Assembly: GCA_016199805.1 (NCBI GenBank) | Contig: JACQGC010000018.1 | Span: 5,219-69,218 of the forward strand | Direction: 5' to 3' | DNA length: 64,000 bases | DNA from: Candidatus Nomurabacteria bacterium | GTDB lineage: Bacteria; Patescibacteriota; Minisyncoccia; Phycocordibacterales; UBA9973 | In this document: positions 2,305 to 26,137 of the stretch, piece by piece | Numbering within the stretch: the first letter of the stretch is position 1 | Layout of the letters: each line of letters starts with the position of its first letter | Program-made: the position numbers and the translations under genes | The notes under the pieces: generated by a model | What the model saw: only the letters and a program-made list of their open reading frames with translations | Databases searched by the model: none | Told to the model about the DNA's origin: nothing

Positions 2305-3210
2305 ATGTTTATAATAAATCACAAAAAAATATTTATCGGCATCTCCATATCATTGGTTGTTTTGTCGCTGGCCTCACTTGCCGTATTCGGATTAAAAATC
2401 GGCATCGACTTCAAGGGTGGCGCTTTGACTGAAGTTTCTTACAAAGTGGAACGCCCGGCGCAAGCCACTTTGGAAAAGCCGCTGGCTGATTTGAATTTTG
2501 GCGCCATTATGTTGCAGCCGACGGGTACTTTGGGTTACATAGTAAAGTCCCGAGACTTGAATGATGCCGAGCACACTTCACTTTTGGGCGCGCTTTCGGA
2601 AAACAATGCCGCTCCTCTGACCGAGCTTAGTTTCAATTCCGTCGGACCTTCGGTGGGCAAGGAGCTCACCAGGAAAGCCATTTTGGCCGTTATTTTAATC
2701 TCGCTCGCGATTATTTGCTTCATCGCTTTTGCTTTCCGAAAAGTTTCCAAACCGATTTCTTCCTGGAGATACGGTATCATTGCCATCGTCACACTTTTGC
2801 ACGACGTGGCTATACCTGTCGGAATATTTGTAGTTCTCTCGCATTTTTATGGGGCGGAGGTGGACAGTCTTTTCGTGGTGGCGGTCTTAACCATTCTCGG
2901 TCTTTCCGTTTCCGATACTATTGTCATCTTTGACCGAATCAGGGAAAATTTGAGAAACCAAGCAAGTGTTGCCAAACAAAACTTCAGCGAAATAGTCGGC
3001 AAAAGTTTGTCGCAATCATTTGTGCGTTCCATCTGCACGTCTCTCACTGTCATTCTGGTTCTTCTTTCCCTGTATTTCTTTGGTCCTGAATCCACAAAAT
3101 ATTTTGCCCTGATGCTCACCGCCGGAATGTTCTTCGGAACCTATTCCTCGATTTTCCTAGCCTCACCGCTACTAGTCTGGGTAGAAGAGTGGCAGAAAAA
3201 GCAGAAATAA
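2305..3210 (+). CDS. secF: protein translocase subunit SecF
   Basis: 301 aa; begins KIGIDFKGGALTEVSY, has a C-terminal multi-TM SecD/SecF domain, and is adjacent to secD. Confidence 0.9.
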   Translation: MFIINHKKIFIGISISLVVLSLASLAVFGLKIGIDFKGGALTEVSYKVERPAQATLEKPLADLNFGAIMLQPTGTLGYIVKSRDLNDAEHTSLLGALSENNAAPLTELSFNSVGPSVGKELTRKAILAVILISLAIICFIAFAFRKVSKPISSWRYGIIAIVTLLHDVAIPVGIFVVLSHFYGAEVDSLFVVAVLTILGLSVSDTIVIFDRIRENLRNQASVAKQNFSEIVGKSLSQSFVRSICTSLTVILVLLSLYFFGPESTKYFALMLTAGMFFGTYSSIFLASPLLVWVEEWQKKQK

Positions 3211-3304
3211 CCTATATAAAATAAGCATAAAAAATCCATTTTCAAAATGGATTTTTTATGCCATACTTTATGGGTTATAAATTATTATTTTAACTATATT
3301 TATT

Positions 3305-3886
3305 ATGGAAAAAAATTTTTGGCAGAGGAATAAAGTGGTTTTAATTATTTTAGCTGTAATCGTTCTTTTGGCGCTTTGGGTTGTCGGAAAATATAATTCT
3401 TTCGTCAGACAAAACGAAGCCATCACCAACCAATGGGCGCAAGTAGACAATCAATTACAAAGACGCTTTGATTTGATTCCAAACGTCGTCAACACCGTCA
3501 AAGGTATCACCAAGCAAGAGAAAGACGTCTTCACCGCTATCGCCGATGCCCGCACGCATTACGCTGGAGCATCAACTGTCGATCAAAAAGCCACCGCGGC
3601 AGGACAAGTGGAATCATCCCTGGGTAGACTTTTAGTTATCACCGAAAATTATCCACAACTATTATCCTCCAAGTCTTTTCAAGATTTGACGGTAGAGCTT
3701 GAAGGGGCGGAAAACAGAATTGCCGTGGAGAGAATGAAATATAACGACTTAGTAAAGAGCTTGAATGCCGGCGTGAAAGTATTTCCGAGCTCTATTGTGG
3801 CCTCTATTTTTGGAGTAAAAGAGCGTGCTTACTTTGAAGTAAAAGACGAAGCAAAAGTGGTTCCAAAAGTTGACTTTACCCAGTAA
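3305..3886 (+). CDS. LemA family protein
   Basis: N-terminal TM followed by YNSFVRQNEAI..QWAQVDNQLQRRFDLIPN, typical of LemA; followed by a TPM-domain gene, the classic LemA-TPM pair. Confidence 0.85.
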   Translation: MEKNFWQRNKVVLIILAVIVLLALWVVGKYNSFVRQNEAITNQWAQVDNQLQRRFDLIPNVVNTVKGITKQEKDVFTAIADARTHYAGASTVDQKATAAGQVESSLGRLLVITENYPQLLSSKSFQDLTVELEGAENRIAVERMKYNDLVKSLNAGVKVFPSSIVASIFGVKERAYFEVKDEAKVVPKVDFTQ

Positions 3887-20003: not shown

Positions 20004-21491
20004 ATGGAAGAAGAAAATAAGGGTTCAAATTTGCGTTGGTGGATACTTTTGACCGTTATCATCGGGACTTTTTTGGGGCGTCTGGACGAGACCATTGTAA
20101 ACTTAGCCCTCCCAAAAATCATAAACGATTTTGGCATTACTGTTTCCGCGGCGAGTTGGATAGCGACTGCGTATATCTTGGCCAATACCGCTTTTGTTCC
20201 GATATGGGGTAAACTCGGAGACACTATCGGCCGGAAAAAAGTCTATCTTTGGGGTTTTAGTATTTTTATTTTTGGCTCAATTTTGGCGGGGCTATCATGG
20301 AACCTTCCATCTATGATTACTTTTCGTATCATCCAGTCCATCGCTAGCAGTGCGGACTATCCGACGGCTATGGCCATCTTGGCTGTCACCTTCAGACATG
20401 GCAAGGAGCGCGCGCAGGCACTCGGCATCTGGTCTTCTTCTTTCGCCGCGGCGATAGTTTTCGGCCCATTATTGGGAGGGCCACTTATCGACAATTTCGG
20501 CTGGCGCTCTGTTTTTATGATTAATATCCCAATCGGAATTTTGGGAATGTTTATGGCCGTAAGTTTCATAAATGAATCTCGTTCCGAAGTAAAAACCAGA
20601 TTCTTTGACTGGTGGGGTGCCATCACTTTGGGCGGAATGCTTTCCGCTTTGGTTTTGGTTTTGGACCAAGCTTCCATCTGGGGCTGGATGTCATTAAATA
20701 GCTCATTGTGCTATTTGGCCATTTTGGTTCTGCTCGGAGTATTTCTACGGATTGAGCAAAAAGTTCCAGAACCGATTGTGGATTTGAAATTCTTCAAAAT
20801 CCCGGCTTTTGTCAACGTGCTGGTAAACAATTTTATAGTTTTCATGGGTATGATGGGCGGTGTCTTTTTGATACCTATTTTCGCCCAAACTTTTCTCGGG
20901 TTCAACGCGACCCAATCCGGCTACCTATTTATTCCCATGGCAGCATCGTTGATGCTTGCTGCCCCTATCGGCGGGAGACTGATTGGAAAAGTGCAATCTC
21001 GGTTTATAATTTTTGCCAGTACCCTGACCGCCGCTCTCGGCATTTTTCTCTTGACCGGACTTGATCCAAAATCAGGAGCTTTAGCCATCGCCATACCGCT
21101 TTCTATCATGGCCTTTGGTATGGGTTTCGGTATGGCTCAACGCACCAATATTGTGGCCTCTGTGGTGCCGCAAAGCGAGATAGGCATCGCTTCATCCATT
21201 TTAGCATTGGTCCGGAACATAGCCGGCGCATTTGGAATCGCTATTTTTGCCACTATTGTAACCGCTAGAACCAAAACAAATGTTTCAATCATCAACAGTT
21301 TTAGTAGACTAAACAGCCATATACCACTTAATATAAAAACATTCATAGGTTTGATTGAGTTAAAAGCCCAAGTGTCGGCTTATGATTATGTTTTTTTGAC
21401 CGCAGCGCTCATAGTTTTTTTCGGCTCCTTTACCATTTTGTTTCTAAAACTAAAAAGCGAACGCACTGATATCAAAGTGCACGTGGAGTAG
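20004..21491 (+). CDS. MFS drug:H+ antiporter, DHA2/EmrB-like (14-TM type)
   Basis: LTVIIGTFLGRLDETIVNLALPKI..., WGKLGDTIGRKK, about 14 TM segments. The internal ATG at 20004 avoids the upstream repeat cluster. Confidence 0.85.
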   Translation: MEEENKGSNLRWWILLTVIIGTFLGRLDETIVNLALPKIINDFGITVSAASWIATAYILANTAFVPIWGKLGDTIGRKKVYLWGFSIFIFGSILAGLSWNLPSMITFRIIQSIASSADYPTAMAILAVTFRHGKERAQALGIWSSSFAAAIVFGPLLGGPLIDNFGWRSVFMINIPIGILGMFMAVSFINESRSEVKTRFFDWWGAITLGGMLSALVLVLDQASIWGWMSLNSSLCYLAILVLLGVFLRIEQKVPEPIVDLKFFKIPAFVNVLVNNFIVFMGMMGGVFLIPIFAQTFLGFNATQSGYLFIPMAASLMLAAPIGGRLIGKVQSRFIIFASTLTAALGIFLLTGLDPKSGALAIAIPLSIMAFGMGFGMAQRTNIVASVVPQSEIGIASSILALVRNIAGAFGIAIFATIVTARTKTNVSIINSFSRLNSHIPLNIKTFIGLIELKAQVSAYDYVFLTAALIVFFGSFTILFLKLKSERTDIKVHVE

Positions 21492-22112
21492 TTAGTTTTT
21501 TCGCGTTCGCTTTTTATACAGCAAGACTTGGATAAGGTTTACGCCGACACCGAGGGCGAAAACTATCACCCCGGCCTTGAGGAAAAAAGACAGGTTGTTT
21601 TGCCATTCGTTGCCCAAATAGAAACCTGTCATGCCATACATGATGGTATAAGCTATCTCTCCGAACAAGGCAAAAGTAAAAAAAGTTTTGAAAGACACTT
21701 TGGAAATACCAGCCATGATGTTGGTAGCCGGGGAGAGTTCGGTTAGAAACCGGCTGAAAAATATCAGCGAGGGGGCAAAGTCCACGATATAATCTTCAAC
21801 TTCATGAAAAGATTTTGAATGCAAAATATGCCGGAAGAAAACAAATCTGCCCAATACTTTCTCCCCGTATTTTTTTGCCAAAATGTATCCGATTATGTTT
21901 CCGGTCATGCTGCCTAAAAGCGTTATCCCGAGCACCAGGTAAATATTAAAATAGCCCTGAGAAGCAAACCCTCCGGCGGCGGCCAGCACCGTGCTGGCGG
22001 GTATGGGCAGGGCTATGGACGAAAGCAGGGCGACTATAAACAATCCCACGTATTTATAAAGAAGCAAAAAAGAAATTAGGTATTGAAACAAAGGATATAA
22101 AAATGTGGTCAT
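21492..22112 (-). CDS. DedA/VTT-domain membrane protein
   Basis: 206 aa multi-TM with the DedA core (GLFIVALLSSIALPIPASTVLAAAGGFAS..., FSRFLTELSPATNIMAGISKVSF). Confidence 0.8.
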   Translation of the reverse strand: MTTFLYPLFQYLISFLLLYKYVGLFIVALLSSIALPIPASTVLAAAGGFASQGYFNIYLVLGITLLGSMTGNIIGYILAKKYGEKVLGRFVFFRHILHSKSFHEVEDYIVDFAPSLIFFSRFLTELSPATNIMAGISKVSFKTFFTFALFGEIAYTIMYGMTGFYLGNEWQNNLSFFLKAGVIVFALGVGVNLIQVLLYKKRTRKN

Positions 22113-22181
22113 GCTTTAGTGGTCATTGTACCAAATAGAGCCTTTATATTCCAGAGAAAATATGCTAAGTTTAAGTAATAT

Positions 22182-22252
22182 TACGGGATCTGCTAATGGT
22201 AGGCAAACGCTCTCTGAAAGCGTGAATCTTGGTTCGAATCCAAGTCCCGTAG
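22182..22252 (+). tRNA. tRNA-Gln (anticodon CUG)
   Basis: UACGGGA/UCCCGUA acceptor with U1:A72 and G73 as in bacterial tRNA-Gln, anticodon stem ACGCU/AGCGU with loop CUCUGAA, T-arm CUUGG-UUCGAAU-CCAAG. Confidence 0.8.
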
Positions 22253-22253
22253 C
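22236..22253 (+). repeat. 18-bp direct repeat gaatccaagtcccgtagc (left copy, the tRNA-Gln 3' end)
   Basis: Identical 18-mer at 22611-22628; together they bound the GIY-YIG insertion. Confidence 0.8.
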
Positions 22254-22288
22254 ACTTCGGCAAGCTCAGTGTAAACGAAAATATTTAC

Positions 22289-22570
22289 ATGGAAAAACAT
22301 TACGTATACATGCTTCTTTGCGACCAGAAAACTTTTTATATCGGTATTACTTTTGATATTCAGAAAAGGTTAGAAGAACACAAATCCAAGGAATCTTTTT
22401 TTACAAAAAAGTTTTCTGAAGTTAAACTTGTATATTGTGAGAAATATAAAAATAAAAACGAGGCTGCAAAAAGAGAACGACAATTAAAGGGTTGGAGTCG
22501 CAAAAAGAAGCAAATGTTGCTTAATGGAAAAATCGGAATAAACTGCATTGAGCTGGATGAAGTGCTGTAG
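22289..22570 (+). CDS. GIY-YIG nuclease-family protein (YhbQ/UPF0213-like)
   Basis: YVYMLLCDQKTFYIGITFDIQKRLEEH...R: the GIY-X10-YIG core with conserved Arg and Glu. Confidence 0.75.
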   Translation: MEKHYVYMLLCDQKTFYIGITFDIQKRLEEHKSKESFFTKKFSEVKLVYCEKYKNKNEAAKRERQLKGWSRKKKQMLLNGKIGINCIELDEVL

Positions 22571-22610
22571 TATAATTGAGATGAGACGTTTGCCTTGAGC
22601 TTGCCGAAAG

Positions 22611-22628
22611 GAATCCAAGTCCCGTAGC
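22611..22628 (+). repeat. 18-bp direct repeat gaatccaagtcccgtagc (right copy)
   Basis: Exact duplicate of 22236-22253. Confidence 0.8.
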
Positions 22629-22653
22629 CAGCAGCAAACTTAGCATATTTTTT

Positions 22654-23040
22654 GTGGAATTAGAAGCGTTGTGCTATTATGGGGGTATGGGAACAGGAAA
22701 TTTTGGTCACCCTCCCGAGGGTGCGTTTATAATAGACAAGAAAAAGGCGGAATTTAAGAAACTGCTGTCTTCCTTGACTTCTTTGCTGGAAAAACTTTCC
22801 TTTGGACAAAGGCAAAAATTCATTGCCGAAGTCTCCCGTTTGAGCGAACAGCTTTTACATACTGACCCGGAACTCTTATTGGAAGAGGTAAACATTTTAG
22901 CCCAGCTTTATGGGGGCTTGTCCACATCTCTGAAAGGGGAAGCAAACAGAGAGATTATCAGCGCCGCCACGTTTCAGCTCGGAGAGATTTCTGCCGCCGC
23001 GCAAGAACTGCAAAAAATAAAACCGGGTGCAAGAGCTTAA
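22654..23040 (+). CDS. hypothetical protein
   Basis: 128-aa ORF with a GTG start, ending just before a strong terminator; no recognisable domain. Confidence 0.45.
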   Translation: MELEALCYYGGMGTGNFGHPPEGAFIIDKKKAEFKKLLSSLTSLLEKLSFGQRQKFIAEVSRLSEQLLHTDPELLLEEVNILAQLYGGLSTSLKGEANREIISAATFQLGEISAAAQELQKIKPGARA

Positions 23041-23065
23041 TAATAAATAAAAATAAATTAGAATT

Positions 23066-23100
23066 GCCCCGCGTTCAGCTGAACGCGGGGCTGTTTCTTT
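23066..23100 (+). terminator. rho-independent terminator GCCCCGCGUUCAGCUGAACGCGGGGC plus U-tract
   Basis: Perfect 11-bp GC-rich stem followed by TGTTTCTTT. Confidence 0.6.
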
Positions 23101-23104
23101 CTCC

Positions 23105-23132
23105 TTGTCAAAAACCCCCAAAGATGTACTAT
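23105..23132 (+). promoter_or_regulatory. sigma70-like promoter (TTGTCA, 16 nt, TACTAT)
   Basis: -35 at 23105-23110 and -10 at 23127-23132. The predicted start (about 23139) coincides with the first base of the long stem of the downstream structured RNA. Confidence 0.4.
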
Positions 23133-23139
23133 TAAAGCA

Positions 23140-23309
23140 GTCCAGAGGAAGAACGCTTTGAGTTGACCTGGGGTGTGACAGCCCCGGCTGGCGACCCGGG
23201 CTGTCCTCCCGCACGGCCTCGCGCTTCTCCTCTGGACTGAGAATTGTTTTTGTCTTGTCCTATCGTTTTTTACCCGAGCTTCCTTCACTGGCGCTCGGGT
23301 TTGTTTTTT
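23140..23309 (+). ncRNA. candidate small structured RNA (about 170 nt, unclassified; long closing stem, asymmetric internal loop, apical hairpin)
   Basis: GUCCAGAGGAAGAACGC (23140-23156) pairs perfectly with GCGCUUCUCCUCUGGAC (23221-23237). Inner hairpin GACAGCCC/GGGCUGUC. About 62% GC in a 40% GC genome. Own promoter. Ends at terminator ACCCGAGC...GCUCGGGU plus U6 (23272-23309). No ORF. Confidence 0.4.
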
Positions 23310-23676
23310 ATATGGGCTATTGCCATTTCAATTTTTTTATATATACTAAAGTAAATGTAGTTTAGGTTCCTTTGTAAAGGAGTACCACGTGGTAAACATA
23401 CAAACCGTTTTCTGTCCTAACTGCCAACTTAGGACAAACGTTCAATTCCCCAATTGCGTACATTGCGGGAAGAGTCTTGTTGTTTCGACCAAACAAAGCC
23501 AACCCGTCGCCACCGCTGCCCGCCCGCGGCAATGGCCAACGGTAGCCGTTCACTAGGTTCTGCATTTCCGCCGAAAGGCATCGTAAAGGGCAGGCTCGCC
23601 AAGCTTGCCCTTTTTCATTGCTTGCAATGTGCTAAAAAGGAGTATAATTAAATTATTAATAACCTATTAAAAATAT

Positions 23677-23916
23677 ATGAATCAAAACAAAAATTGTGAG
23701 AGTTGTATGATGCCTTTGGCAAAGGACCCTATGGTTAGTGGGAGTGACAAGTATTGCAGTTATTGTTTCCAGGGTGGCCGGTTGGTTTACGAGGGGAATG
23801 ACGTGAATGAATTTAAAAAAGCCAGTTATGAGAAGATGGTAGCAAGCGGCATGAACAAACTGAAAGCCAAATTTTTCGTTTGGATGATTGGCTTCGCGCC
23901 CCGCTGGAAGAAGTAA
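23677..23916 (+). CDS. small zinc-ribbon protein
   Basis: CESC...16...CSYC arrangement in 79 aa. Confidence 0.5.
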   Translation: MNQNKNCESCMMPLAKDPMVSGSDKYCSYCFQGGRLVYEGNDVNEFKKASYEKMVASGMNKLKAKFFVWMIGFAPRWKK

Positions 23917-23938
23917 AATAAGTGGTATACTTAAACAT

Positions 23939-24484
23939 ATGAAAATAGAATCAGAATGGAAAAAAGTACCAAAACCTAGATTAGAAAAGACGTATCCAAA
24001 ATCTCCGGAAGATAGCAAAAAGCTATATGATATGAATGTTGCCTTGCTCAATTATTTGGAGCGTTATTCCGGTGATGCTGATATGCAGTTTATAAAAGAA
24101 GATTTTGAAAGATCCGAAGAATTTGGAGAAAAAATCTCTGTCTTAAAGGACGCATTGTCGGTTTTTGAAAAGGAAACAGTGGATCAAGTCAAGGCAAGTT
24201 GTCGGGCACAAATTGACGAACTCTCTGCCGCTTGGCTCAATAAAAAAAATGGAGAAGAGGTTGTGCGTCTGATAGATATCAGACTAGGTAATATTTCTGG
24301 GGATTTTGGAGTTGATATTAAAAAAGAGGCTGATAATTTCATAGCTATGTTGCGCAAAAAGCCCGAGCTTTGGGCTTTTTGTAATCTTTTGATTGTCGGG
24401 GCTCAAGTAAAAAAAGATTTAACATATTTTAGAAAAGTTACAGAAACAGCTATAGCAAGTAATTCTGGTAATACAGTTCAGTAA
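23939..24484 (+). CDS. hypothetical protein
   Basis: About 180-aa charged, helical ORF. The internal ATG at 23939 was chosen because the longer ORF overlaps the upstream gene. Confidence 0.45.
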
Positions 24485-24489
24485 AATTT

Positions 24490-24699
24490 ATGTATCTTGT
24501 TTACATTTTGGAATGCGCCGACAAGACTTTGTATGTGGGTTGCACAAACAACCTGGAGAAAAGATTAAATCAGCACAATAATCATAAATCCGGAGCCCAT
24601 TACACCAAAATCCGCCGCCCGGTGGTTTTGAAATATTTTGAGAAATATAGAACTCTAAAAAGGGGACGAGCTCGGGAACGGAAAGAAGTAAAAATTTAA
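24490..24699 (+). CDS. GIY-YIG nuclease-family protein (second copy, YhbQ-like)
   Basis: [30 protein letters not shown]...R. A palindromic hairpin follows at 24702-24724. Confidence 0.75.
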
Positions 24700-24803
24700 A
24701 TTTCGCGAGGACCGTCCTCGCGAAACTCGATTTATATTTGATTGATATCTTTTCCTTTTAGGTATAGAGTGAATTTGAAGCGGAGTTCCGATAAGGGGGA
24801 AAA

Positions 24804-25100
24804 ATGAATAGCCACAGGATCTTGTGCAAATGTGAGTGTGGTAATTACGTACAACCGTTCTCTTTGCGGGTTACAGACCAGAAGTCTTTGATGGTCATCG
24901 GAAAATGCATTGCTTGTGAGTCGCTGGTCAATGTGTTCTTCCCGCTAGATTACCTCGAGGAGTCTTGTCCGGCTCCGGCCCCGACTCTGTTAATTGAGGA
25001 AGGAAAGCCCATGCCGGGGAAACCCTTCCATTTCACGGTGGAAGATGTAAGGATGTTGCGCTCGGGGAAAATTGACCCAGAAGAGGAAGGAGAAGGATGA
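24804..25100 (+). CDS. Cys-rich hypothetical protein (putative zinc finger)
   Basis: CKCECG...CIACES; good Shine-Dalgarno (AAGGGGGAAAAATG); higher local GC. Confidence 0.5.
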   Translation: MNSHRILCKCECGNYVQPFSLRVTDQKSLMVIGKCIACESLVNVFFPLDYLEESCPAPAPTLLIEEGKPMPGKPFHFTVEDVRMLRSGKIDPEEEGEG

Positions 25101-25242
25101 GTCCTCGGGCTTTTCAAGAAGAAGGGTACTAGGGGAGGCGAGCTTCGGCTTACCTCCCCATTTAAATTATAAATTTGCAAAAAATACTACTGCTCTTGTA
25201 ATTTTCTATAAATATGTTACAGTGTTTTTGAAAGGAGCACAT

Positions 25243-25473
25243 ATGCAGAACCGAGTTATTATGGTTTCTTCGGTCAACTTGCCCGACGAAGCCGCACAGC
25301 AGATGAACGACGAAATCAAAAAGTTGGGAGAAGGCTGGAGCGTGGTTGATATCAGCACCAACGTCGAAGTATTTGGTGTTGTTGTGGACGGCATAAACAT
25401 ACCGCCCTTACACCACGCTGTATACGCCATAACCGTCGCGTTACAGAAGCCGGACTTTGAAGAGGTCGACTGA
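25243..25473 (+). CDS. hypothetical small protein
   Basis: 76-aa ORF with Shine-Dalgarno AAAGGAGCACATATG, followed by a terminator. Confidence 0.45.
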   Translation: MQNRVIMVSSVNLPDEAAQQMNDEIKKLGEGWSVVDISTNVEVFGVVVDGINIPPLHHAVYAITVALQKPDFEEVD

Positions 25474-25566
25474 CATATCGTGGCGGCGAGGACTAAAATC
25501 GGTTTCATCGGGTCGGGCGTCCGCAAGGACGTCCGGCCTTTCACTTTAAATTTAATACAAACTTTT

Positions 25567-25606
25567 ACTGGCGGTGCTCCTCGAGGGGGCGACCGCCAGT
25601 TTTTTT
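25567..25606 (+). terminator. rho-independent terminator ACUGGCGGU...ACCGCCAGU plus U7
   Basis: 9-bp stem, GC-rich loop, TTTTTTT. Confidence 0.6.
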
Positions 25607-25617
25607 GACCTTATGAC

Positions 25618-25764
25618 TTTAAAACGGAACCCATTCAGCCAGCTGGTCGTAGGCGACCCAGCCTCCCCAGAAAATTACCACAAGCATTAACAATGCTATC
25701 ACCGCCAACGTTTTCTTGCTCTTTGCCAAGACAACGTTTCCCAAACTCTCCAAGAAATAGGACA
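25618..25764 (-). CDS. small hydrophobic protein (48 aa), not in the ORF track
   Basis: Strong Shine-Dalgarno on the - strand (GGAGGCTCCATG); product MSYFLESLGNVVLAKSKKTLAVIALLMLVVIFWGGWVAYDQLAEWVPF has one TM. Confidence 0.35.
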
Positions 25765-25786
25765 TGGAGCCTCCAAATAATATACT

Positions 25787-26137
25787 ATGCTCAAAAAGAT
25801 TTTAGTCAAATTAAAAAATAGGGAGTATAATAATAGTATGAATTACATACAAAAATATAAGGAATATTTACAAGATAACCCGGAGGGTTATTGGTTCAAG
25901 AGGAAACTTTACGGCTGGGGATGGACGCCGGCCAAATGGGAAGGGTGGATGGTGATTTTTATATTTTTACTTTTGATTTTATTGGTTGCCTGGAGCCTGG
26001 GCTCAAATCCTATGCCGACAGATTGGGATATTGATTTATATTTTACAAAAATTATTTTGCTGGTGGCTCTGCTCATTCTAGTCTGCTACAAAAAAGGCGA
26101 GAAGCCAAAATGGCAGTGGGGCAAGAGAAAAGAGTAA
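25787..26137 (+). CDS. hypothetical membrane protein
   Basis: Trp-rich, one to two TM; alternative start at 25838. Confidence 0.5.
   Translation: MLKKILVKLKNREYNNSMNYIQKYKEYLQDNPEGYWFKRKLYGWGWTPAKWEGWMVIFIFLLLILLVAWSLGSNPMPTDWDIDLYFTKIILLVALLILVCYKKGEKPKWQWGKRKE

Follow-up and report, generated by a model that had tools for sequence, protein, structure and literature searches.

A candidate mobile mini-element encoding a GIY-YIG nuclease behind tRNA genes of Candidate Phyla Radiation bacteria

The nearest experimental precedent for a nuclease that chooses transfer RNA (tRNA) genes as its target is SegB of phage T4, a GIY-YIG enzyme. Its 27-bp site contains an 11-bp motif of the T-psi-C stem-loop, and nine tRNA genes are cleaved by the enzyme at their 3' ends, often just past the CCA (PMC2330249). 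In the Candidate Phyla Radiation (CPR) of bacteria, small GIY-YIG open reading frames (ORFs) have been described in ribosomal RNA (rRNA) gene inserts that are introns of neither group I nor group II (Tsurumaki et al. 2024, PMC11270868). These inserts are reported to be sparse and to show no site preference, and no anatomy of repeats or inverted ends is described for them (PMC11270868). Here we analyze a 64,000-nucleotide stretch of contig JACQGC010000018.1 from a Candidatus Nomurabacteria bacterium (the window), in which a gene for a small GIY-YIG nuclease lies between a tRNA-Gln(CUG) gene and a second copy of the 3' end of that gene. In full-text literature searches no account of GIY-YIG elements at the 3' ends of tRNAs was found, and we take the element to be a selfish nuclease gene that targets tRNA genes.

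The window element resembles the segB locus in that a GIY-YIG gene is located among tRNA genes and is present or absent between relatives, and the choice of target is shared. SegB differs in being a protein of ~220 amino acids with a DNA-binding part that belongs to the I-TevI/Seg branch. It generates 2-nt overhangs, has neither terminal inverted repeats nor a duplication of a tRNA end, and is encoded by a phage, whereas the window element is chromosomal and resides in CPR bacteria. With the CPR rRNA inserts the element shares the radiation and the occurrence of small GIY-YIG genes in stable-RNA genes; those inserts differ in having an rRNA host and in lying inside the gene.

The initial annotation of the locus had placed the end of tRNA-Gln(CUG) at 22252 and noted that its last 17 nt plus one flanking base recur exactly past 357 bp, with a YhbQ-type GIY-YIG nuclease as the only gene between the repeats and with no integrase. 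All of this was reproduced. Rfam places the tRNA at 22182-22252 and ARAGORN at 22182-22253. Copy 1 of the repeat covers tRNA positions 57-73, up to the discriminator base, and C74, which is located at 22253. The 64 kb contain just two copies of the 18-mer GAATCCAAGTCCCGTAGC, at 22236-22253 and 22611-22628, identical at 18 of 18 nt and with a gap of 357 bp (22254-22610) between them. No third match was found in the 64-kb window with up to 3 mismatches allowed, and none of 100 dinucleotide-preserving shuffles gave two matches. Copy 1 is followed directly by ACTTCGG and copy 2 by CA, the latter completing a genomically encoded CCA; the occupied tRNA thus reads ...G73-C74-AC, the native CA of its CCA being displaced by the first bases of the element.

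The insert has imperfect terminal inverted repeats (22256-22277 against 22587-22608, 22 nt, 86% complementary), and only 75 nt of it are non-coding. No integrase-like ORF was found between or beside the repeats, the GIY-YIG ORF being the sole gene in the insert; no transposase of a known catalytic class is encoded there either, the one protein being the GIY-YIG nuclease. Coordinates of the individual features are collected in Table 1.

The product of the nuclease gene matched Pfam family PF01541 over residues 3-74 (58.8 bits against a cut-off of 22.6, E = 6.8e-16). An exact look-up of the window protein itself gave no entry. The closest database protein, which is 100% identical, is named from a Candidatus Nomurabacteria bacterium, and the remaining close relatives all come from metagenome bins of CPR/Patescibacteria. 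Alignment of 35 homologues revealed that Y17, G19, R27 and E63, all at usual GIY-YIG positions, are invariant and that H31 is nearly so. An AlphaFold model (predicted local distance difference test score, pLDDT, 84) has the GIY-YIG fold, with strands (E) and helices (H) in the order E4-11, E15-21, H24-32, E45-53, H56-68 and H71-78 and with the C-terminal 9 residues disordered. A search of the PDB with the family profile retrieved the UPF0213 proteins BH0048 (1ZG2, 6.3e-11) and EF2693 (1YWL, 7e-9), and Foldseek ranked the same two structures first and the structure-specific nuclease Slx1 next. Since UPF0213 structures are the top matches by both profile and structure, the label "YhbQ-type" is right. 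The window protein shares with the UPF0213/YhbQ proteins and with Slx1 the same single-domain GIY-YIG fold and size, at an identity of 29-34% to the former and 17-20% to the latter. Slx1 differs in being a structure-specific nuclease that works with Slx4; for bacterial UPF0213 proteins the retrieved literature neither assigns a function nor reports a link to tRNA genes or to mobility. Out of 1.84 billion cluster representatives (50% identity), 10 reach E <= 1e-30 and 2,084 reach 1e-10; by these searches the nuclease family forms a compact clade of high conservation within a large family. In phage and plasmid collections only distant relatives were found (<40% identity), and the one of these that was inspected, from a Rhizobium phage, had no adjoining tRNA.

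An "empty" tRNA-Gln site lacking 22254-22628, which the initial annotation had called for, is present in relatives. It was reached through homologues of the divergently transcribed DedA/VTT neighbour of the tRNA (21492-22112). The predicted empty site, scanned for in metagenome contigs as an exact pattern, gave 0 matches, and the metagenome loci retrieved by the DedA/VTT neighbour, five short contigs, carried no information on it. Three loci (L103, L104 and L105, including NCBI assembly GCA_003157195.1), in which the DedA/VTT neighbour is 80% identical to that of the window, contain the same tRNA-Gln(CUG), with acceptor stem and T-arm identical to the window's and no insert. The 3' end of this tRNA is uninterrupted: ...GTCCCGTAGCCA is followed by ATGGCAAACTTA, compared with GCAGCAAACTTA after ...GTCCCGTAGCCA at copy 2 of the window. 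Written with different bounds, the L103-type end reads ...CTTGGTTCGAATCCAAGTCCCGTAGCCA followed by ATGGCAAACTTATTATAT, and the window past copy 2 reads ...GTCCCGTAGCCA followed by GCAGCAAACTTAGCATAT. The match of the L103-type trailer to the window trailer past copy 2 is weak (18/30) and equals its match to the left end of the element after copy 1 (18/31), a score that does not discriminate. The two sites are equivalent not by the trailer score, but because of the leader, in which 38 of 51 aligned positions match (CCTTTATATTCCA.A.AAAATATG.TAAGTTTA), the identical tRNA arms and a shared GCAAACTTA string. The equivalent site being uninterrupted, the loci differ by exactly the element plus one repeat copy. 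In a further relative, L100 (neighbour 82% identical), the same tRNA has an intact CCA and no such element, and in L098 (neighbour 93% identical; same metagenome as L001, a locus described below) a tRNA-Gln(CUG) without the element, of different sequence and in opposite orientation, lies beside DedA. We conclude from these alignments that the window element is an insertion that is polymorphic, present or absent, at a homologous site.

To survey the family, 80 loci from 80 species (one genome per species) encoding relatives with 54-84% protein identity were analyzed by ARAGORN and by repeat search. Of the 80 independent loci, 47 have a tRNA on the same strand whose end is at most 250 nt upstream of the ORF; in 44 the distance is at most 150 nt. 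The occupied tRNAs are Gln (UUG, CUG), Asn, Ser (four anticodons), Glu (two), Tyr, Lys and Arg. An exact 14-24 nt repeat of the local tRNA 3' end was found past the element in 37 loci, namely 36 of the survey loci and L001; the window would make 38. In these repeat-bearing loci the repeated sequence varies with the tRNA and equals the local one. Its length is 17-20 nt in 32 of the 35 loci that could be placed on the tRNA, and among these 35 its first base is tRNA position 57 in 25 loci and 58 in 8. Its last base is position 74, except that a chance match of the flank can extend it by one to two bases. The copies are separated by a median of 382 bp, and a genomic CCA directly follows copy 2 in 9 of the 37 loci. 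L065 and L088, distant relatives, carry the element behind tRNA-Gln(CUG), with a perfect repeat in each.

The ends of the element are likewise conserved. In the left end, ACTTCGGCAAGCTCAGTGCAAGC, each of 23 positions is at least 80% conserved (35 loci), and this near-invariant end contains AGCTCAGTG, which is similar to a tRNA D-arm. The right end, ...GCCGAAGG (consensus ...gCcgAagg), is looser and forms an imperfect inverted repeat of the left one; complementarity between the two ends exceeds shuffled controls by more than 2 standard deviations in 26 of 35 loci. By this survey the element family is widespread, sitting behind at least 10 tRNA isoacceptors across CPR bacteria. The empty site and the recurrence support the suggested minimal selfish element with a tRNA gene as its target, but the target is not tRNA-Gln alone: many tRNA 3' ends are used. 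Some contigs with the element are labelled Methanoperedens, Planctomycetales or Gammaproteobacteria (L024, L081 and many "uncultured Gammaproteobacteria" titles); such contigs may come from CPR genomes and be mis-binned, or they may represent real transfers beyond the radiation.

Comparison of closely related elements bears on movement. L001 encodes a 90% identical protein in a different genomic context, behind tRNA-Gln(UUG), and has its own perfect 17-nt repeat, ATTCCAAGCCTCCCAGC. The DNA of this element is 84% identical to that of the window element; the two tRNAs, which are different isoacceptors, are 73% identical. The element of L003 is 88% identical to the window's, compared with only 73% for the CTP synthase genes of the two genomes. 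Between the window and L050 one repeat position differs (A or G at position 59), and in each genome both copies have the same base. In a neighbour-joining tree of the proteins, which are short and leave it weakly resolved, the window (CUG) groups with L001 (UUG) and L088 (CUG) with L092 (UUG), and elements from Asn, Ser, Gln and Tyr tRNAs are interleaved. Because perfect repeats are found behind different tRNAs in closely related elements, the simplest explanation is that the duplication is made from target bases at each insertion. The repeat consists of target bases and varies by site, as a target-site duplication does, and it presumably originated at insertion.

Rearranged copies were also observed. 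Solo left-end fragments are located past copy 2 in L040, L052 and L069, and in L065 the interval from tRNA-Gln(CUG) to the GIY-YIG ORF contains the 23-nt left-end unit five times in tandem (2870-2984). L075 contains a perfect tandem, element-repeat-element-repeat; it was not accepted as proof of re-insertion, since its two copies are 100% identical and unequal crossing-over or mis-assembly may account for them.

The results make it probable that the 357-bp insert is a mobile mini-element, consisting of a left end, the nuclease gene and an inverted right end, which inserted after tRNA nucleotide 74 in the orientation of the tRNA and duplicated positions 57-74. The encoded nuclease would recognize the conserved T-arm DNA of tRNA genes, as SegB of phage T4 does. 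The two strands would be cut ~18 nt apart, between positions 56 and 57 and between 74 and 75, the element would be joined in, and filling of the gaps would yield the 18-bp target-site duplication. In addition, a resident element may pass from one homologous tRNA allele to another by break-and-repair homing, a mode compatible with the first.

Since no promoter-like site was found in the 35 nt between the tRNA (C74) and the start of the ORF, the nuclease gene is probably co-transcribed with the tRNA; the tRNA promoter would drive its expression, and its transcript would be separated by tRNA 3' processing. The tRNA is intact up to position 74, and therefore there is no loss to the host. As the occupied tRNA ends in ...G73-C74-AC and not in CCA, trimming and the CCA-adding enzyme are needed; an encoded CCA is also missing in 3 of the 4 other tRNAs of the window, which likewise need CCA addition.

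Insertion sequences and miniature inverted-repeat elements resemble the proposed mini-element in their imperfect inverted ends, their direct repeat of target bases, their occurrence in many genomes, and their tandem and truncated copies. They differ in the enzyme, which here is a GIY-YIG nuclease and not a DDE, HUH, serine or tyrosine transposase. The duplication here is also unusually long (~18 bp) and the target extremely specific.

Several observations weigh against a mobile element that duplicates its target. Cleavage, the cut positions and the joining step are all inferred, and the route given above is the most likely one. To our knowledge, characterized GIY-YIG enzymes produce 2-nt and not 18-nt overhangs, and we know of none that acts as a transposase. 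No second domain or DNA-binding module was found in the 93-residue protein, and how such a protein could read ~25 bp is a difficulty for the model. The comparison data all come from metagenome assemblies. In some loci the downstream copy is unlike the nearest tRNA, as in L003, where the two differ at 3 positions of the acceptor arm and nowhere else, a pattern that fits an element travelling together with its downstream repeat. The protein tree also contains runs of one tRNA type, and given this partial clustering much of the distribution may be due to vertical descent or homing. Finally, the ORF is intact even where the repeat has decayed (six loci), which points to continuing selection on the protein, through frequent transfer or host benefit; together with the high conservation of the family, retention of the ORF could reflect host benefit rather than selfish spread.

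The role of the enzyme can be taken further, though only tentatively, and we give this extension a substantial chance that is nevertheless well short of even. The UPF0213/Slx1-like GIY-YIG protein would be a transposase-like enzyme of an unrecognized class of mobile elements, making two nicks, one at the T-loop and the other 18 nt away at the acceptor end. The enzyme would read the T-arm of the tRNA gene, or a structure formed by its DNA, and insert a 350-400-bp element with ACTTCGG.../...CCGAAGG ends, the 18-bp duplication keeping the tRNA intact. The D-arm-like AGCTCAGTG in the left end and the Slx1-like fold hint at recognition of DNA structure. "Homing endonuclease" is a functional label for a putative activity of the protein. 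The inverted ends and the local 18-bp duplication look more transposon-type than classical homing.

Loci in which the ORF lacks an adjoining tRNA fit less neatly. Even there a diverged tRNA 3' part stands in front of the left end, in many cases exceeding the real one by 5 nt, and the matching tRNA can sit 1-3 kb upstream with other genes between. A conserved peptide (VL..D..R(T/N)) could be read upstream of the left end in loci without a tRNA. This reading was rejected because its "conserved residues", when reverse-translated, are T-loop and acceptor bases, so that the stretches in question are diverged tRNA 3' ends; the loci are non-syntenic and have no long ORF on either strand.

Larger arrays are found behind some tRNAs. 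In L018 (1252-3326) the 3' end of a tRNA-Asn at 1252, which ARAGORN does not call, matches copy 2 exactly over 18 nt, and between the repeats lie three nuclease genes: a GIY-YIG gene of another subfamily (1364-1630), an HNH gene (2103-2684) and a member of the family studied here (2995-3282). L082 contains a 165-nt direct duplication (118-281 and 3320-3482), made up of a tRNA-Gln 3' end, ~128 nt and a second partial tRNA end, which flanks a 3.2-kb block with hydrolase and peptidase S51 genes ending with the GIY-YIG element. L003 and L005 encode the same nuclease and differ at strain level by the presence or absence of a 3.7-kb island right past copy 2, with genes for a serine hydrolase and a glyoxalase and small ORFs, and without an integrase. 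The island is inserted directly after the tRNA-end fragment ...CCCAGCCAGTAA, and its right end, GGTTCCAACTTCGCACCAAACACCCAGC, is identical to the diverged tRNA "pseudo-end" found in that genome in front of the GIY-YIG element. The arrays suggest that tRNA ends have received insertions repeatedly, sometimes with the element moving together with its downstream repeat, and the cargo bounded by tRNA ends (L003/L005, L018, L082) could represent cassettes mobilized by the same machinery.

A classical free-standing homing endonuclease gene would carry its own tRNA 3' segment; the duplication would have arisen once per lineage, through an illegitimate event, and no target-site duplication would accompany each insertion. 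Like SegB in T4, the gene would pass between homologous tRNA alleles by double-strand-break repair and in no other way. We consider this unlikely, though several points favour it: the GIY-YIG family itself, the filled/empty polymorphism at a matching site, the cutting of tRNA 3' ends by SegB, and the partial clustering of proteins by tRNA type. The mismatched downstream copy of L003 is what would be expected if it were carried with the element, and the solo left-end fragments fit messy repair. What speaks against it is that the same geometry (57/58 to ~74), with a perfect local repeat, recurs behind at least 10 isoacceptors and many sequence variants, and that closely related elements (84-88% DNA identity) lie behind tRNAs with different 3' ends and have a perfect repeat in each case. 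Moreover, the occupied tRNA keeps positions 1-74, so a site within the tRNA is not obviously destroyed by the insertion; terminal inverted repeats are foreign to homing endonuclease genes, and the protein has no DNA-binding domain.

Improbable, in our view, is a domesticated host nuclease expressed from tRNA promoters, e.g. for DNA repair or RNA processing, with the repeat and the inverted ends acting on RNA in processing, in stability or through an alternative acceptor pairing with copy 2. The strict co-orientation with the tRNA and the short, promoter-less spacer would suit such a function, as would ORFs that are intact in nearly all loci, including those with decayed repeats, and a compact, highly conserved family (10 clusters at E <= 1e-30). 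The predicted fold of the whole transcript does pair the 5' strand of the tRNA with copy 2, and the arrangement is kept behind tRNA-Gln(CUG), with perfect repeats, in the distant L065 and L088. A domesticated gene is at odds, however, with empty sites and with occupation of different tRNAs in close relatives, with tandem and truncated copies, and with an element that is more conserved between genomes than a housekeeping gene; copy 1 alone, in addition, already gives a complete tRNA.

Genomic islands and prophages with tyrosine integrases share with the window element the tRNA 3' target, the intact tRNA and the partial 3' copy at the far end. A tRNA 3'-end duplication is the hallmark of such islands and larger cargo arrays do occur behind some tRNAs (L018, L082, L003/L005), yet a remnant of an integrase-mediated island, with nearly everything lost, is very improbable. 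The window element is 357 bp long, has no integrase and repeats the local tRNA, as opposed to a fixed attachment-site core. A unit of ~350-400 bp with the same ends occurs in dozens of unrelated genomes, no integrase was found here or in the larger arrays examined, and the empty site differs by exactly the element and the repeat. Equally improbable is an intron-like insert that a ribozyme, of group I or another kind, excises from the RNA: GIY-YIG genes are often found in group I introns, bacterial tRNA genes host such introns and the ends of the insert pair, but the tRNA was the only Rfam family found in 21000-26000 even at E <= 1, the non-coding part is just 75 nt, the insertion lies past position 74 and not in the anticodon loop, and the tRNA is already completed by the upstream copy.

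Table 1. Features of the tRNA-Gln(CUG) locus of the window and coordinates of the island comparison
Feature	Position	Strand	Evidence or remark
Left arm of 25-nt inverted repeat, within conserved tRNA-Gln leader; not part of the element	22148..22172	.	92% complementary
tRNA-Gln(CUG), complete	22182..22252	+	Rfam RF00005, 55.4 bits, positions 1-71; anticodon CTG
Direct repeat copy 1, tRNA positions 57-74 (T-loop G57 to C74), inside the functional tRNA	22236..22253	+	
Left end of element, ACTTCGGCAAGCTCAGTGTAAACG, left terminal inverted repeat	22254..22277	+	Inverted-repeat search; family consensus ACTTCGGCAAGCTCAGTGCAAGC
Element plus one repeat copy, 375 bp, missing from the matching site of L103/L104/L105	22254..22628	+	
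GIY-YIG nuclease gene, 93 amino acids, UPF0213/YhbQ type, co-directional with the tRNA	22289..22570	+	Only credible ORF between the repeats
Internal second complement of the left end, in the last ORF codons (IELDEVL)	22546..22566	+	21 nt, 81%
Right end of element, ...CGTTTGCCTTGAGCTTGCCGAAAG, right terminal inverted repeat	22587..22610	+	Inverted-repeat search
Direct repeat copy 2 (22611-22628) plus CA; displaced original tRNA 3' end, encoded CCA, then native trailer	22611..22630	+	Trailer resembles L103 empty site
Right arm of 25-nt inverted repeat, native trailer just past copy 2; inverted copy of the leader	22636..22660	.	
Island comparison	L003 4255-4420 vs L005 598-760 and 4180-4400		

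The tRNA and the insert are bracketed by a 25-nt inverted repeat with a predicted duplex energy of -36.3 kcal/mol, compared with -11.4 for shuffles. Leader-trailer pairing was rejected as a general trait of these tRNAs, as it is strong in the window only and absent from the other 34 loci tested. The right arm matches, in inverted form, the conserved tRNA-Gln leader of L100, L103 and L098, and in L098 the tRNA has the opposite orientation beside the same flank; this suggests that the tRNA-Gln locus of this lineage is invertible or rearranging. Within the 3' end of the element a promoter-like site (22548-22576, + strand; TTGAGC, 17 nt, TATAAT; 10/12) faces out toward copy 2 and ORF 22654-23040, and a similar TAGAAT was seen by eye in L001 and L003. 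Downstream of ORF 22654-23040 lies a perfect 26-nt GC-rich palindrome (23066-23091; GCCCCGCGTTCAG/CTGAACGCGGGGC) with a terminator score on both strands.

Other small GIY-YIG genes were noted in and around these loci. A second one in the window (24490-24699, + strand, 69 amino acids, PF01541 E = 1.1e-14) belongs to a different subfamily (phmmer ~1e-10 against the first); it lacks a tRNA, an ACTTCGG end and a flanking repeat, and is followed by a GC-rich hairpin at ~24703-24727. In L098 (2100-2760) a GIY-YIG gene of a different subfamily (2253-2513) lies upstream of tRNA-Gln(CUG), with a duplicated tRNA-Gln 5' fragment before the gene; this fragment and a second, downstream tRNA-like sequence are interrupted by GC-rich palindromes (CCTGCCTGCGCAGGCAGG and similar). 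The architecture of this subfamily may be a mirror image of the one described here. Members of the L098-type subfamily were also seen ~100 nt downstream of a tRNA in L100 and of a tRNA 3' end in L018.

The strict geometry of the sites, with insertion past nucleotide 74 and a duplication that begins at position 57 or 58, suggests a nuclease whose cut sites are set by their distance from the conserved T-arm. Such T-arm-measuring insertion may serve as a programmable or universal "safe-harbour" activity. For genome annotation, partial tRNA 3' ends, "pseudo-ends" and N-terminally extended GIY-YIG calls in these genomes are footprints of the element. The tiny, streamlined genomes of CPR/Patescibacteria nonetheless carry a compact and highly specific selfish element behind many of their tRNA genes, which provides a biological context for UPF0213/YhbQ, a widespread single-domain GIY-YIG family that has no assigned function in the literature found. 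If the protein is indeed transposase-like, the element would be the first GIY-YIG-driven DNA transposon in bacteria and would give the UPF0213 family its first biological role.

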